A DNA stretch of 64,000 nucleotides, taken from Bacteroidales bacterium. GTDB taxonomy: Bacteria > Bacteroidota > Bacteroidia > Bacteroidales > WCHB1-69. The stretch's first letter is position 1. Each line of letters starts with the position of its first letter. The stretch covers positions 83,381 to 147,380 of the forward strand of contig JAKSMB010000003.1 of NCBI GenBank assembly GCA_024400875.1. Direction: 5' to 3'. Under the pieces are notes generated by a model. It saw nothing but the letters and a program-made list of their open reading frames with translations, searched no databases and was not told the DNA's origin. Shown one piece after another: positions 6,576 to 11,858 of this stretch. The position numbers and the translations under genes are program-made.

Positions 6576-7853
6576 TTAGGTTTTCTGTTGCTGTTTTTTT
6601 GCTGCAGGAAACAGCACATTGTTTAATATCAACCGATATCCTGCAGAGTTTGGAAAGAGATCTAGATTGGTCGGCTCGTCATGCACCAGATGCTGATAAT
6701 CTTCAGGATCGTGACCAGAATAAAAGGTCCAGGTGCCTTTGCCATATTCTCCGTGTATGTATCGCGCTTCGTTAAAGAATTGCGATTCTCCCAATATGGT
6801 TACGGTTGGCTTAATGACTTCTTTTCGGAAAGCTGTGGTTTGCCCCATAAATCCAGGAATAACATTCATATGGTTTTGACACAACATAGTAGGAACAGGG
6901 TCCCATTTTGCTGAGAAATCAAATAAGGTGAAATAATCGTTGTTCTTATTAGTTAAATGTGTTGTCGGATTGACATCAATATTTGAAACTTCATAAACGT
7001 AAGGATTGGTTTCAATCTTAAAGTCTGTGAAGGCGAAGCAGTTGTCAAAGTTGAGTTTGCTTTGGGCTTGTGGGTCCATAGGATCTCCGTCAAACATCGC
7101 ATCACAGATGTCAACACCTTCAGCAGCCAATGCAATGTCGTAGCTGTCAGGACCTGAACACATTGCAAATAGATAACCACCGCCGGCCACAAAGTCTCTG
7201 ATGCCTTTTGCAACGGCCAACTTCATAAGCGAAACTTTAGAAAACCCTAATTTGGCTGCACGTTCTTCGTTCGATTTGACATCTTCTTGATACCATTGAG
7301 CATTTCTATAGTTAGCCCAAAACTTACCGTATTGGCCTGTGAAATCTTCGTGATGAAGGTGGAGCCAATCATATTTGGGTAATTCACCATTGATGACTTC
7401 CTCGTCGTAAATTACTGTGTAAGGGATCTCTGCGTATGTGAGCACCAAGGTGACGGCATCATCCCAGGGAAGTTTTGATTTGGGTGAGTATACTGCAATT
7501 TTGGGTTCCTTGGTAAGCCTGATTTCATTCATGTTGTTTTCTACAGCACCAATCTCATTCAAAATACCTTGGGCTTGTATGTCGGCAATTACTTGGAAAG
7601 AGACGCCACGCACGGTGCATTCTGTTTCAATAGCACTGTTGTATACGCACATGAAACTGCCTCCTCTATAGTTTAAAAGCCAACTCATATCTATGTTGTG
7701 ACTTACGGCAAAATAGGCAACCCCATACGCCTTTAGGTGATTGCTCTGCTCGGTGTCCATAGGGATGAGCAGATAGGAACAAAATGCTTGGAATGTGATG
7801 AATACCAAGGCCACTGTCCAAAGGGTTCGTTTTAGTATCTTCATTTTAGTCAA
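6576..7853 (-). CDS. Exported protein with a class-I glutamine-amidotransferase-like (GATase1/ThuA-like) fold signature. From memory, homologs in Bacteroidota are often annotated as asparagine synthetase B. Function unknown.
   Basis: Signal peptide, then LIPMDTEQSNHLKAYGVAYFAV...WLLNYRGGSF, YDWLHLHHEDFTGQYGKF, a nucleophile-elbow-like GGGYLFAMCSGPDS, and GHDPEDY. It overlaps the upstream gene by 8 nt. Confidence 0.55.
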   Translation of the reverse strand: MTKMKILKRTLWTVALVFITFQAFCSYLLIPMDTEQSNHLKAYGVAYFAVSHNIDMSWLLNYRGGSFMCVYNSAIETECTVRGVSFQVIADIQAQGILNEIGAVENNMNEIRLTKEPKIAVYSPKSKLPWDDAVTLVLTYAEIPYTVIYDEEVINGELPKYDWLHLHHEDFTGQYGKFWANYRNAQWYQEDVKSNEERAAKLGFSKVSLMKLAVAKGIRDFVAGGGYLFAMCSGPDSYDIALAAEGVDICDAMFDGDPMDPQAQSKLNFDNCFAFTDFKIETNPYVYEVSNIDVNPTTHLTNKNNDYFTLFDFSAKWDPVPTMLCQNHMNVIPGFMGQTTAFRKEVIKPTVTILGESQFFNEARYIHGEYGKGTWTFYSGHDPEDYQHLVHDEPTNLDLFPNSAGYRLILNNVLFPAAKKQQQKT

Positions 7854-8631
7854 TGATAAATGTTTTGCTTGTTATACGTCCAGAAGGGTCAAGATAAAAT
7901 AGTTGACTTTTCCCTATCCGAAATTGAGATGTTTTTTGATTGATGTCGATTCTTTGCAGTTCCATCGATGGAAATGTGTAGGCGAAGAGTTCATTTTCCT
8001 TCAGAAGAAGGAGCGTGTTGCCGTAGTATTGCATCTGGGAGATGTTTGGCATTGCGATTCTCTTATCGTATGTGCCATATTTGTCAAAAAGGAATATCCC
8101 ACAGGATGAATCTGCAAGAAGTATACTTTTGTCAAGCTGTGTTTCAATTACCGTGGGCCTGAATTCGGGCCCGAAATCACAAAATGTTTTGGTAAGAATG
8201 TTTAAATTTAGATCTGTGATGATCAGATTTTGGTTTACTTCGTCATATAAAGCCAATTGATTGGTGCCGGTCATGGCAACAAGAGAGATGGTGAATAAAT
8301 TGTGCTCAAAAAGATTTAAAGGATTGCCAATTGGAGCCAACTTGTTGTCAAGTAGTAGGATTATTCCAGATTCTTTGTAGAAAACGACAGTTTTTGAGGC
8401 GATGGATGCGCAAACAGAGGTGATTTCCCCATACTGCAATTGACTGAAGTGATAGGCAAGCTTGCCTGCGTTTGAATATTTGTCGAGTGATGATCCTTTC
8501 CAGCAGTATAGGTTTTCTTGAACGTCAGTGGTGAAATGATCGTAGGTGGTGCTATTAAAAGAAGGTCGCTCTTGTGCGGAAACCGTACAAAGAGCGACAA
8601 TACTTATGAATAACAGTAGGTGCTTCTTCAT
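7846..8631 (-). CDS. Exported hypothetical protein (261 aa, possibly beta-rich repeats)
   Basis: Signal peptide MKKHLLLFISIVALCTVSAQ. I recognise no motif. It is tightly coupled to both neighbours, with a 6-nt gap upstream and an 8-nt overlap downstream. Confidence 0.6.
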   Translation of the reverse strand: MKKHLLLFISIVALCTVSAQERPSFNSTTYDHFTTDVQENLYCWKGSSLDKYSNAGKLAYHFSQLQYGEITSVCASIASKTVVFYKESGIILLLDNKLAPIGNPLNLFEHNLFTISLVAMTGTNQLALYDEVNQNLIITDLNLNILTKTFCDFGPEFRPTVIETQLDKSILLADSSCGIFLFDKYGTYDKRIAMPNISQMQYYGNTLLLLKENELFAYTFPSMELQRIDINQKTSQFRIGKSQLFYLDPSGRITSKTFIID

Positions 8632-8637
8632 TGATTA

Positions 8638-10098: not shown

Positions 10099-10139
10099 TG
10101 TATTTTTTTTTATTTTATGATTTGTTATTCAAAGGTTTA

Positions 10140-11858
10140 CTATCTTCTGCTGTTGCCTCCGCTATGAGAGGAGGAACTGCTGTGTGAGTATGAGCTAGAG
10201 CCAGAATGAGAAGAACTAGAAGAACTTGGTCTTGAGTAAGAACTTGAACTGGAAGAACTCGGTCTAGAGTAAGAGCTTGAACTAGAAGAGCTTGGTCTTG
10301 AATATGAACTACTTGAAGAACTCGGTCTGGAATAAGAGCTTGAACTGGAAGAGCTTGGTCTTGAATAAGAGCTTGAACTGGACTGAGATGAACTTGTAGA
10401 ACTTGGTCTAGAATAGCTGCTTGAATTTGAGCTTGAAGAAGTTGGTCTATTGTAGTTGTTTGAATTGGTTCTTGCTGGAGTGGTTGTCGTCGTCGTTGGA
10501 CGGCTTGTTGTCGTTGTAGGACGATTGGCGTTAGTGTTGGCAGTAGGACGAGTTGTTGTCGTAGTTGTTGTAGGACGTGTGGTACTGTTTCCGTTTGTCG
10601 GACGAACCACGGTCGTCGTTGTAGCTGGACGGGTTGCCGTTGATGGATTTGTTGTTACTTGACGAGAAATTACAGTAGGCGTGTTGTTCTCTCGTGAAGT
10701 TGTGGTTATTGGCTTTGTCGTTGTCGTTGTGCTCGTTTGTCTCTGAGCCTGAGATGTTTGTCCGTTGACAAGTGTTGTGTTTGTTGGTTTTACAGTGGTA
10801 CTTGTCGGAGGAACGGAAGAACTTGTGGTGAGATTTCCCGTTTGTGGTTTATGGTTCTCAATTTTATTCATTGGCTTTGAGGTTTGCGCATTGGTGGCGG
10901 TAGCGGAGGTGGTATGATTTGTTACACCCGTGCTGGTTCCTGCATAGTTTGAAGCTAATGAATTGTATTGTTGATTGAATGAACTTGCAGCGGAAGATGT
11001 TGAAACAGAGTAACGGTTGTTGTTTTCGTTGTTTCCGTAGGTGTTGTTGCTATAGTCAACTGGACGATCTGCACGACCACCGTTTGTGGCATTTCCTACA
11101 GATGGTCCTAAGTTGTTTCTGTGACCATAATAGTAGGTGGAGTTGTGGTCATAGTTGTTGTGATAATAGTGTGCGGCATAGTCGTAGTCATGCCAGTGGT
11201 GATGATGGCCGTATGGATAGTCCCAACCATATCCGTAATGCCAATGATGTGGGTGGTGGTATGCCCAACCCCAGCCATAATGGAAACCATAGTCGTAGTA
11301 ACCACATCCATAATAATATGGACGATAATAGTAGCTTGGCCACATCCAGTTGTATCCCATGTAAATACTTAAACCCCAGGAGTTTGGATTGTAATCATAC
11401 CAGTACATGTTGGTGTAGTATGGGTCGTAGTAACTCCATCCTGTATAGTAGTTGGTGTGAAAACGACGCAAACGTGAGGTGTAATAGTAGTCGTAATAAT
11501 CGTCGTTGTCATAGTAGTTATTATAGTTGATGACGGTGGAACCTTCTCCATTAACCACCTCGTTTGAGTTGTAGTTGGAAGCGTTTGCATATTCGATAAC
11601 GGGTTCGCTAACGCCTGGATAATATGTTTTCGTGTCAATTAAATTGCCAGATTCGTCATATTCGTATACGATTGAGTCTGCCTGAAGTTGAGCTTGGTTG
11701 TTGCTGGAATTGCTGGCTTTGACTTGGTTGTTTGGTCTGGAATATTGTGCGCTTTGAGAAGACACGTAAATGTCATCATAATAAGCAAATGAGCCGGTGG
11801 AACAAGCGGCGAATAACAAGCTGGTTGCGGCTAAAAGGATTGGAAATAGTTTTTTCAT
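10140..11858 (-). CDS. Lipoprotein of extreme composition, with a Tyr/His/Trp-rich core and a Thr/Ser-rich tail carrying tandem YSRPSSSSSSS repeats (function unknown)
   Basis: MKKLFPILLAATSLLFAAC is a lipobox. The core includes YYDNDDYYDYYYTSRL...YYYRPYYYGCGYYDYGFHYGWGWAYHHPHHWHYGYGWDYPYGHHHHWHDYDYAAHYYHNNYDH. RPTTTT-type repeats follow, then six YSRPS(n) units. ATG 11858 is preferred over the upstream TTG at 11903 because the lipoprotein signal begins there. Confidence 0.7.
   Translation of the reverse strand: MKKLFPILLAATSLLFAACSTGSFAYYDDIYVSSQSAQYSRPNNQVKASNSSNNQAQLQADSIVYEYDESGNLIDTKTYYPGVSEPVIEYANASNYNSNEVVNGEGSTVINYNNYYDNDDYYDYYYTSRLRRFHTNYYTGWSYYDPYYTNMYWYDYNPNSWGLSIYMGYNWMWPSYYYRPYYYGCGYYDYGFHYGWGWAYHHPHHWHYGYGWDYPYGHHHHWHDYDYAAHYYHNNYDHNSTYYYGHRNNLGPSVGNATNGGRADRPVDYSNNTYGNNENNNRYSVSTSSAASSFNQQYNSLASNYAGTSTGVTNHTTSATATNAQTSKPMNKIENHKPQTGNLTTSSSVPPTSTTVKPTNTTLVNGQTSQAQRQTSTTTTTKPITTTSRENNTPTVISRQVTTNPSTATRPATTTTVVRPTNGNSTTRPTTTTTTTRPTANTNANRPTTTTSRPTTTTTTPARTNSNNYNRPTSSSSNSSSYSRPSSTSSSQSSSSSYSRPSSSSSSSYSRPSSSSSSYSRPSSSSSSSYSRPSSSSSSSYSRPSSSSSSHSGSSSYSHSSSSSHSGGNSRR
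10196..10440 (-). repeat. In-frame tandem repeat of 30-33 nt (about 6-7 units) encoding YSRPSSSSSSS
   Basis: The plus-strand motif ggtct(n)ga(r)ta recurs at 10228, 10261, 10294, 10324, 10357 and 10405, with spacings of 33, 33, 30, 33 and 48 nt. Intervening aagagcttgaactggaagagctt units are near-identical. Confidence 0.85.

Follow-up and report, generated by a model that had tools for sequence, protein, structure and literature searches.

A four-gene exported cluster of uncultured Bacteroidales appears to join a clade-restricted barrel, lipoprotein and propeller cassette to a conserved GATase1-like gene

We analysed a 64-kb stretch of DNA from an uncultured Bacteroidales bacterium (64,000 nucleotides (nt), hereafter the window) and studied a cluster of four minus-strand genes at positions 6576 to 11858, which encode a lipoprotein, a predicted outer-membrane barrel, a small predicted beta-propeller and an exported protein resembling class I glutamine amidotransferases (GATase1-like). 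Comparison with related loci revealed that the four genes are not one conserved pathway. On balance we favour reading the cluster as a composite, in which a clade-restricted barrel, lipoprotein and propeller module and an unrelated, conserved enzyme-like gene make up one transcription unit in this lineage. A preliminary description of this DNA had not recognised the combination as a described pathway, and this was borne out. None of the four proteins has a Pfam or NCBIfam match at threshold, no pathway with this gene set was found in the literature, and searches for this gene set, for the name of the family and for a link to the GH3 genes discussed below returned nothing relevant. The four open reading frames are:

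10140-11858, minus strand: lipoprotein of 572 residues (ATG start); a signal peptide with lipobox LLFAAC19 is followed by an N-terminal domain (about 300 residues) that is conserved and a tail, rich in Ser/Thr/Pro/Arg, that varies
8638-10098, minus strand: outer-membrane beta-barrel of 486 residues, placed by profile matches in the FadL/PorV/BamG superfamily, with a signal peptide followed by invariant Gln20
7846-8631, minus strand: exported protein of 261 residues, predicted from its AlphaFold2 (AF2) model and Foldseek matches to be a six-bladed NHL-like beta-propeller, with a signal peptide followed by invariant Gln20
6576-7844, minus strand: exported class-I-glutamine-amidotransferase-like protein of 422 residues, assigned from an AF2 model, Foldseek and a 98-sequence alignment, and labelled 'asparagine synthetase B' at NCBI

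The GATase1-like gene is separable from a three-gene cassette

We surveyed 88 loci carrying relatives of the barrel gene and counted neighbours over the loci with enough flanking sequence. Grouped by the identity of their barrel to that of the window, these gave:

Barrel at least 46% identical (63 loci): lipoprotein gene upstream 53/53, propeller gene downstream 52/52, divergent proS 43/43, GATase1-like gene downstream 11/43
Barrel 42-45% identical: lipoprotein gene upstream 1/4, propeller gene 0/3, divergent proS 1/3, GATase1-like gene 0/2
Barrel 41% identical or less: lipoprotein gene upstream 0/7, propeller gene 0/12, divergent proS 0/7, GATase1-like gene 0/6

Within the clade defined by barrels at least 46% identical, the lipoprotein, barrel and propeller genes form a conserved cassette, with mazG and a PorE-like gene lying beyond proS. 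The GATase1-like gene is absent from 32 of the 43 informative loci of this clade and from all eight loci outside it, and it joined the cassette recently, only in the subclade of the window. Where present it is accompanied by udk (uridine kinase) and a gene for a DUF6515 protein; the four-gene order, followed by these two genes, is kept in 11 loci, and in all 11 the gap between the propeller and GATase1-like genes is at most 23 nt. Once barrel identity falls to 44% or less, the lipoprotein gene is kept in 1/11 loci and the propeller gene in 0/15. Two kinds of candidate for missing partners were set aside: genes of about 500 residues upstream in other genomes, considered as divergent barrels, proved to encode DnaB or GH3-family proteins, and small open reading frames downstream of distant barrels were rejected as divergent propellers.

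A second survey, centred on the GATase1-like gene, covered 80 loci (L005-L084) from GTDB species representatives spanning Pedobacter, Mucilaginibacter, Chitinophagaceae, Flavobacteriales, Lentimicrobiaceae and Bacteroidales. No relative of the barrel or the propeller was found near the gene in any of these 80 Bacteroidota loci, and dnaB lies directly upstream of it in about 24 of them. Orthologs still 78-80% identical to the window protein sit in another block, which runs from a gene for a 133-residue protein through the GATase1-like gene itself to SDR, LdcA, acyltransferase and APH genes. In two close relatives (L175 and L177) we observed in this block an SDR, an S66 LD-carboxypeptidase, an acyltransferase and an APH-family kinase. 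The preliminary description had named conserved gene neighbourhood as a check on a single four-gene module, and it is here that the proposal fails, with the fourth gene in only 11 of 43 clade loci and unlinked in 80 further genomes.

The four genes also differ in evolutionary rate. Within the clade, identity to the window is 87-93% for ProS, 84-89% for the GATase1-like protein and 79-88% for Udk, with the PorE-like protein (71-77%) and MazG (65-83%) somewhat lower; the clade is narrow. Over the same loci identity is 45-63% for the N-terminal 300 residues of the lipoprotein, 46-57% for the barrel and 39-46% for the propeller. All three proteins of the cassette evolve fast; the rate of the GATase1-like protein is slow and housekeeping-like. 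Hypervariability between strains was considered for the barrel and the propeller and rejected, as variants inside 90%-identity clusters differ by only 1-4 substitutions.

Gene structure and transcription signals

In the order of the cluster the genes are separated by 41 nt, 6 nt and then either 1 nt, if the last gene starts at ATG (6576-7844, 422 residues), or an 8-nt overlap, if it starts at TTG (6576-7853, 425 residues). Public gene calls on identical contigs choose the ATG, and the region is represented at NCBI by proteins MCQ2291911-13, from an uncultured Bacteroidales metagenome-assembled genome of gut or rumen metagenomes. The tight packing first described was thus confirmed, with the two gaps exact and the overlap holding for the TTG start. 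Two candidate transcription signals flank the genes:

6540-6567, both strands: bidirectional terminator-like hairpin that the cluster shares with the udk gene converging on it, assessed by fold energies against shuffled sequences
11915-11922, minus strand: TATTTTTG, a candidate promoter motif of the Bacteroidota -7 type (pattern TAnnTTTG), which lies upstream of the lipoprotein ATG at a distance of 57 nt

The hairpin, which had also been noted before, has a 12-bp stem and a 4-nt loop and folds with -19.5 kcal/mol on the plus strand and -17.4 kcal/mol on the minus strand (z = -5.4 and -5.2); none of 200 shuffles folds as well. The udk gene that faces it occupies 5921-6535 on the plus strand. 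The -7 motif is the sole minus-strand TAnnTTTG match in the intergenic region between proS and the lipoprotein gene. One further minus-strand match lies within the cluster, at 9456-9463 inside the barrel gene, and the short intergenic gaps contain none. The motif is weak evidence, because TAnnTTTG is not enriched across the window (67 observed against 55.5 +/- 8.3 expected). A scan for sigma-70-type promoters did not rise above shuffled expectation, we found no terminators between the four genes, and an Rfam scan of 5600-12100 returned only one tRNA outside the cluster and sub-threshold noise. Given the single upstream -7 motif, the lack of internal terminators and the shared terminal hairpin, the four genes form a tight unit that is probably co-transcribed. 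Tight co-directional packing is common in bacteria, and alone does not prove a shared function.

Export signals, judged by reading the sequences and alignments, are present at the N-terminus of all four products, as previously proposed: a lipobox in the lipoprotein, signal peptides followed by Gln20 in the barrel and propeller, and, in the GATase1-like protein, a helix at the N-terminus after which homologs have A-x-A-type sites. Pfam and NCBIfam scans found no type A C-terminal sorting domain (CTD) of a type IX secretion system (T9SS; PF18962/TIGR04183) in any of the four.

The barrel is a separate subfamily

Following its cleavable signal peptide, the barrel has a glutamine, Gln20, that is invariant in the alignment. 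The window protein falls under every Pfam threshold, has no Toluene_X (PF03349) match at E <= 0.1 and does not match the NCBIfam BamG model (NF053685). Toluene_X does match 19 of 30 orthologs, with a best E of 3.5e-11 and precomputed matches flagged 'faint', and a profile of the family searched against the PDB gave a sole match, P. aeruginosa FadL (3dwo, E 0.0016), with no BamG chain at E <= 10. The FadL/TodX channels are accordingly its best Pfam and PDB relatives; the conserved N-terminal segment ...GTARFLGAGGAFSA..NPAAIG contains their NPA motif, and the size of the protein fits a 14-stranded barrel. Membership of the FadL superfamily is likely on this evidence, which supports the earlier label 'FadL-like'. 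There are no fatty-acid or aromatic catabolic genes nearby.

Matches to more specialised families are weaker. For BamG the orthologs score 46-48.5 bits against a cut-off of 250 (E down to 8e-16), although it is the best NCBIfam match for 11 of the 30. The PorV and PorQ models (NF033709, NF033710 and NF033711, with curated cut-offs of 90, 250 and 220 bits) match only the C-terminal third of the protein, with PorV_fam scoring 27-41 bits against 90 in 28/30 orthologs and PorQ 30-37 bits against 220 in 19/30. With scores this far under the curated cut-offs, and no PDB profile matches for these families, we rejected membership of BamG/BamH, PorV or PorQ. The barrel would on these profiles be a separate subfamily within the FadL/PorV/BamG superfamily, outside BamG, PorV and PorQ proper.

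In two loci with 44%-identical barrels, genes for T9SS cargo precede the barrel gene on the same strand in place of a lipoprotein gene (L145:2547-3866 and L146:431-4849). The cargo proteins have cleaved-adhesin and CarboxypepD_reg domains with a CTD, and a convergent miaA-looking gene follows the barrel.

The lipoprotein has a conserved aromatic core

Two regions of the lipoprotein stand out:

11259-11498, minus strand: Tyr/Trp/Gly-rich core (residues 121-200), defined by composition and ortholog alignment
10213-10382, minus strand: about five tandem 33-nt repeats encoding SSSSSSSYSRP units in the Ser-rich tail

The core contains 34% Tyr and 9% Trp, and residues 331-572 contain 33% Ser and 22% Thr. 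The protein was originally described as a disordered surface lipoprotein rich in Tyr, His, Trp, Ser and Thr. The extreme composition and the lipobox stand: the motif LL[AST]AC, followed by S after the cleavage point, is conserved across orthologs. On disorder one correction is needed: the Tyr/Trp-rich block is better conserved than any other segment, its mean column identity over 53 orthologs being 78-91%. The alignment argues that this block is neither junk nor an unconstrained disordered region, and such conservation is what would be expected of an interaction surface. Overall the lipoprotein is 52% identical to an ortholog whose barrel reaches only 47%. No Pfam or NCBIfam family match was obtained, and neither a BamH-like nor any other known domain was found.

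The surface location fared less well. Acidic residues after the lipidated cysteine serve as the criterion for surface export in PMC12578637, and none occurs in the six positions after Cys19 (mature N-terminus CSTGSFAYYDD). The usual Bacteroidota surface-export signal is lacking, and surface exposure is for this reason not supported by the sequence. General O-glycosylation of the Ser/Thr tail was considered and rejected, as the entire lipoprotein contains just one D-[ST]-[AILVMT] motif. Among strains with a 100% identical GATase1-like protein (L001-L004) the lipoprotein varies in length from 551 to 574 residues, a spread that fits 33-nt repeats having been gained or lost.

The 261-residue protein is a predicted propeller

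The propeller likewise has a cleavable signal peptide and a Gln20 that is invariant in its alignment. Its AF2 model (pLDDT 89.9) is all-beta with about 22 strands, and the best Foldseek match is the NHL domain of Brat (E 1e-11, TM-score 0.73); TM-scores to Brat and TRIM NHL domains range from 0.68 to 0.73, with the propellers of PorZ and BamB lower in the list. We conclude from the model that the protein is a six-bladed NHL-like beta-propeller, with the blade number, the length of about 240 residues and the TM-score of about 0.7 that it shares with the NHL propellers (Brat, TRIM2/3/71), and with BamB and PorZ as further counterparts. In contrast to the NHL propellers, it is bacterial and exported, is only 10-15% identical in sequence and has no NHL Pfam match; no other Pfam or NCBIfam match was found either. 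Only 12 homologs were recovered, and they are fast-evolving.

The GATase1-like protein belongs to a large exported family

The AF2 model of the GATase1-like protein (pLDDT 91.2) matched STM3548/STM1381, lin1909, SpuA and the GATase1-like domains of GH42/GH112 in Foldseek, with E values of 2e-6 to 1e-3. In an alignment of 98 sequences Cys229, on an AMCS(G/A) elbow, is conserved in 97, His378 in 97 and Glu381 in 95, and several further polar residues are essentially invariant. The fold matches and the cysteine support the earlier assignment as 'GATase1-like with AMCSG elbow', and place the protein by model and sequence in the class I glutamine amidotransferase-like superfamily. It shares its fold with STM3548/STM1381, lin1909, the SpuA-type gamma-glutamyl hydrolases and the GH42/GH112 domains, along with the elbow cysteine and a His and Glu that fall in a conserved GHDPED motif. 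It differs from these structures in its low identity (11-14%, TM-score 0.4-0.6) and its extra N-terminal alpha/beta domain, and from such proteins generally in being exported rather than cytoplasmic and in matching no Pfam GATase model.

The family comprises more than 8000 clusters at 90% identity, or 1561 representatives at 50% identity (E <= 1e-3), yet the protein has no Pfam or NCBIfam match of any kind and the family has no model there. The window protein has a helix at residues 2-17, and A-x-A-type cleavage sites follow it in homologs. In five distant homologs a C-terminal sorting domain of the T9SS scores 33-56 bits, above the Pfam cut-off of 27, which indicates that the family works outside the cytoplasm. 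As Cys229, His378 and Glu381 are near-invariant, catalysis is probable, and the protein is probably a thiol-dependent amidase or transferase of the cell envelope. Those members that have no CTD share a conserved basic tail at their C-terminus, ...FPA[AS]KK(K/R)KT-COOH (window 6576-6600; alignment A3). In other members the sorting domain takes the position of this tail, which may itself be a localisation signal.

At NCBI the protein is misnamed 'asparagine synthetase B'. AsnB is a cytoplasmic enzyme in which a class II (Ntn) amidotransferase domain is joined to an asparagine synthase domain. We rejected the window protein as a true AsnB, since no AsnB domain is detectable, a signal peptide is present and the fold is class-I-GATase-like. 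Relevant literature under this name concerns only the genuine 605-residue AsnB.

A proposed composite outer-membrane unit

Under the composite reading, the cassette consists of a fast-evolving lipoprotein with an aromatic domain and a Ser/Thr repeat tail, a barrel of the FadL/PorV/BamG superfamily and a small periplasmic propeller. We infer by analogy with BamG-BamH, and with PorV or PorQ and their partners, that the barrel and lipoprotein may form a stable outer-membrane heterocomplex. The barrel would hold either the lipidated N-terminus or the aromatic domain of the lipoprotein, and the aromatic domain would be the likely contact surface between the two. The propeller may act as a periplasmic accessory or scaffold. 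The GATase1-like protein would be an independent, phylum-wide exported envelope enzyme, placed downstream of the cassette only in the subclade of the window. These locations and the enzymatic activity are what the signals, folds and conserved residues lead us to expect of the cluster proteins.

BamG, the FadL-like barrel of the BAM complex, grips BamH by its lipidated N-terminus, and Bacteroidota encode paralogous BamG2/BamH2 pairs in adjacent genes (PMC12611786, PMC12578637). The window cassette likewise has a FadL-superfamily barrel encoded beside a lipoprotein, and its barrel orthologs include the weak BamG matches given above. The differences are considerable: the barrel family scores about five-fold under the BamG cut-off, a propeller gene is added, the lipoprotein has no BamH-like fold signal or surface-export motif and has an extreme aromatic and Ser/Thr composition, and the cassette is restricted to a narrow clade whereas BamG-BamH is phylum-wide.

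A comparison with PorV and PorQ leads to a similar result. The barrels share a superfamily, the window family has weak C-terminal matches to the PorV_fam and PorQ models, and the genome of the window has a T9SS. The partner of PorQ, PorZ, is a propeller protein. Against this, the window barrel is about 100-150 residues longer and scores far below the family cut-offs, and its neighbours have no CTD, the domain by which partners are bound to PorV and PorQ. Since the barrel was tested for membership of these families and falls outside them, we describe the cassette as one that may work like BamG/BamH, PorV or PorQ, not as one of them.

Several observations weigh against the composite reading. The tight junction between the propeller and GATase1-like genes (a 1-nt gap or 8-nt overlap here, and short in every locus that has both) would also fit co-regulation. 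The synteny of the cassette is seen just in the narrow clade where the flanking proS-mazG-porE-like block is equally conserved, and with the entire neighbourhood conserved adjacency is poor evidence of a functional tie. Where the barrel is 44% identical or less, most loci no longer have the lipoprotein and propeller genes, so that their partnership with the barrel is either young or dispensable. The surveyed loci were not de-replicated, and the counts overstate the number of independent observations.

Alternative explanations

A different account, which we think rather unlikely, makes the barrel a channel of the classical FadL type, with a hydrophobic carboxylic acid or some similar small molecule as its substrate, to which the lipoprotein and propeller are lineage-specific additions, and whose ancestral partner was a cytoplasmic acyl-acid amido synthetase of the GH3 family. 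The barrel's closest Pfam and PDB relatives are indeed Toluene_X and FadL, and its conserved N-terminal segment has the NPA motif that typifies FadL hatch domains. In a distant clade, moreover, 12 loci (barrel 37-41% identical) have a GH3-family gene immediately upstream of the barrel gene, and a 4-nt overlap joins the end of an orthologous GH3 gene to each of the two most distant propeller homologs. The barrel-adjacent GH3 genes, however, are 80-89% identical to each other and represent roughly one lineage, the barrels at or below 41% identity may be paralogs, the 64-kb window contains no GH3 gene, and we saw no locus with GH3, barrel and propeller together.

The GH3-family (PF03321) genes upstream of distant barrels occur in L159-L174 (for example L174:4376-5884 and L169:1371-2870), and those that overlap the distant propeller homologs by 4 nt are L085:5490-7004 and L086:5481-7004. 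In L174 a gene for an M20 amidohydrolase precedes the GH3 gene. In L169 the GH3 and barrel genes, adjacent in sister loci, are separated by an inserted pair that encodes a DNA methylase and a NotI-like restriction endonuclease (L169:2873-4891).

A bolder proposal, and one we hold to be decidedly unlikely, is that the cassette is a new outer-membrane machine, perhaps with an ancestral tie to GH3-type acyl-acid amido synthetases, in which the FadL-like barrel would hold or thread the lipoprotein by its highly constrained Tyr/Trp-rich domain, and would display or tether the long Ser/Thr tail with its variable repeats. If the GH3 tie were true, it would imply traffic of an acyl-amino-acid-like envelope molecule.

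That all four genes make up one dedicated surface-assembly or substrate-capture pathway, with the barrel, an enzyme, an accessory protein and a surface lipoprotein as its parts, is very unlikely. The tight spacing, the junctions that resemble translational coupling, the single terminator and the export of all four products fit such a pathway, as does the retention of the gene order with udk and the DUF6515 gene in 11 loci. It is weakened by the synteny test, in which the GATase1-like gene is missing from most loci of the clade, relocated in close orthologs and unlinked in 80 other genomes, by an evolutionary rate of that protein very unlike those of the other three, and by a lipoprotein without a surface-export motif.

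We strongly doubt that the lipoprotein and barrel are an alternative pair of the BamH2/BamG2 kind, docking on BamA and modifying the assembly of outer-membrane proteins. Bacteroidota do carry such additional side-by-side pairs (PMC12578637, PMC12611786), BamG is the best NCBIfam match for a third or so of the barrel orthologs, and BamB is within the fold list of the propeller. The BamG scores nonetheless remain far from the cut-off, the window barrel itself and the PDB profile search give no BamG match, and the lipoprotein has neither a detectable BamH-like domain nor a surface-export signal, whereas BamH is surface-exposed.

Least probable of all, and to us scarcely credible, is a PorV/PorQ-like T9SS shuttle or anchor for a dedicated partner, either the propeller (as in PorQ-PorZ) or the CTD-less GATase1-like protein: the weak PorV_fam and PorQ matches, PorZ among the fold matches of the propeller, the T9SS cargo among other members of the GATase1-like family, a genome rich in cargo genes with a PorE-like gene nearby and the CTD-bearing cargo genes that precede related barrels in L145 and L146 all point that way, but the scores reach only 27-41 bits against cut-offs of 90-250 and neither candidate partner has a CTD, without which we know of no route to the cell surface for either protein.

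Neighbouring genes

In the DUF6515 protein (window 4578-5720, plus strand; E 2e-20) the signal peptide is followed by a linker of some 170 residues that is rich in Ser/Thr. The design resembles the lipoprotein tail, but we detected no homology between the two proteins. Its gene travels with the GATase1-like gene and udk, and is fast-evolving (43-52% identity). Between it and udk lie a tRNA gene (5783-5853, plus strand; Rfam, 58 bits) and then a terminator-like hairpin at 5861-5883.

A protein with TPR, PD40-propeller and OmpA regions (14242-16176, plus strand) is always syntenic with mazG and proS beside the cassette, and scores under two NCBIfam cut-offs (T9SS_PorE, 341 bits against 600; CHU_0125 OmpA-like, 326 against 620). 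The neighbourhood is rich in T9SS cargo genes. These include an open reading frame of 3595 residues (16533-27320, plus strand), which corresponds to a T9SS-CTD protein called with 3596 residues on identical contigs, and a 701-residue C10-family peptidase with CUB domains and a T9SS CTD (2407-4512, plus strand). Further away, an open reading frame of 884 residues beside SecDF (55775-58429, plus strand) has a faint LptD match (29 bits against 944) and may be a divergent Bacteroidota LptD.

Implications

Complexes of a barrel with a lipoprotein, such as SusCD, BamGH, and PorV or PorQ with their partners, are an organising principle of the Bacteroidota outer membrane. We found no described system that matches the gene set, yet it fits this known design, with a FadL-superfamily barrel and a partner lipoprotein confined to a narrow clade. 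None of these findings overturns current understanding; the locus adds a fast-evolving variant of the barrel-lipoprotein theme from uncultured gut and rumen Bacteroidales, whose lipoprotein has an unusual conserved aromatic core. A by-product of broader reach is the very large, mislabelled family of exported GATase1-like proteins, which are probably catalytic, are sometimes T9SS cargo and have no family model. Correcting the 'asparagine synthetase B' label and finding the substrate of these proteins would be useful for annotation.

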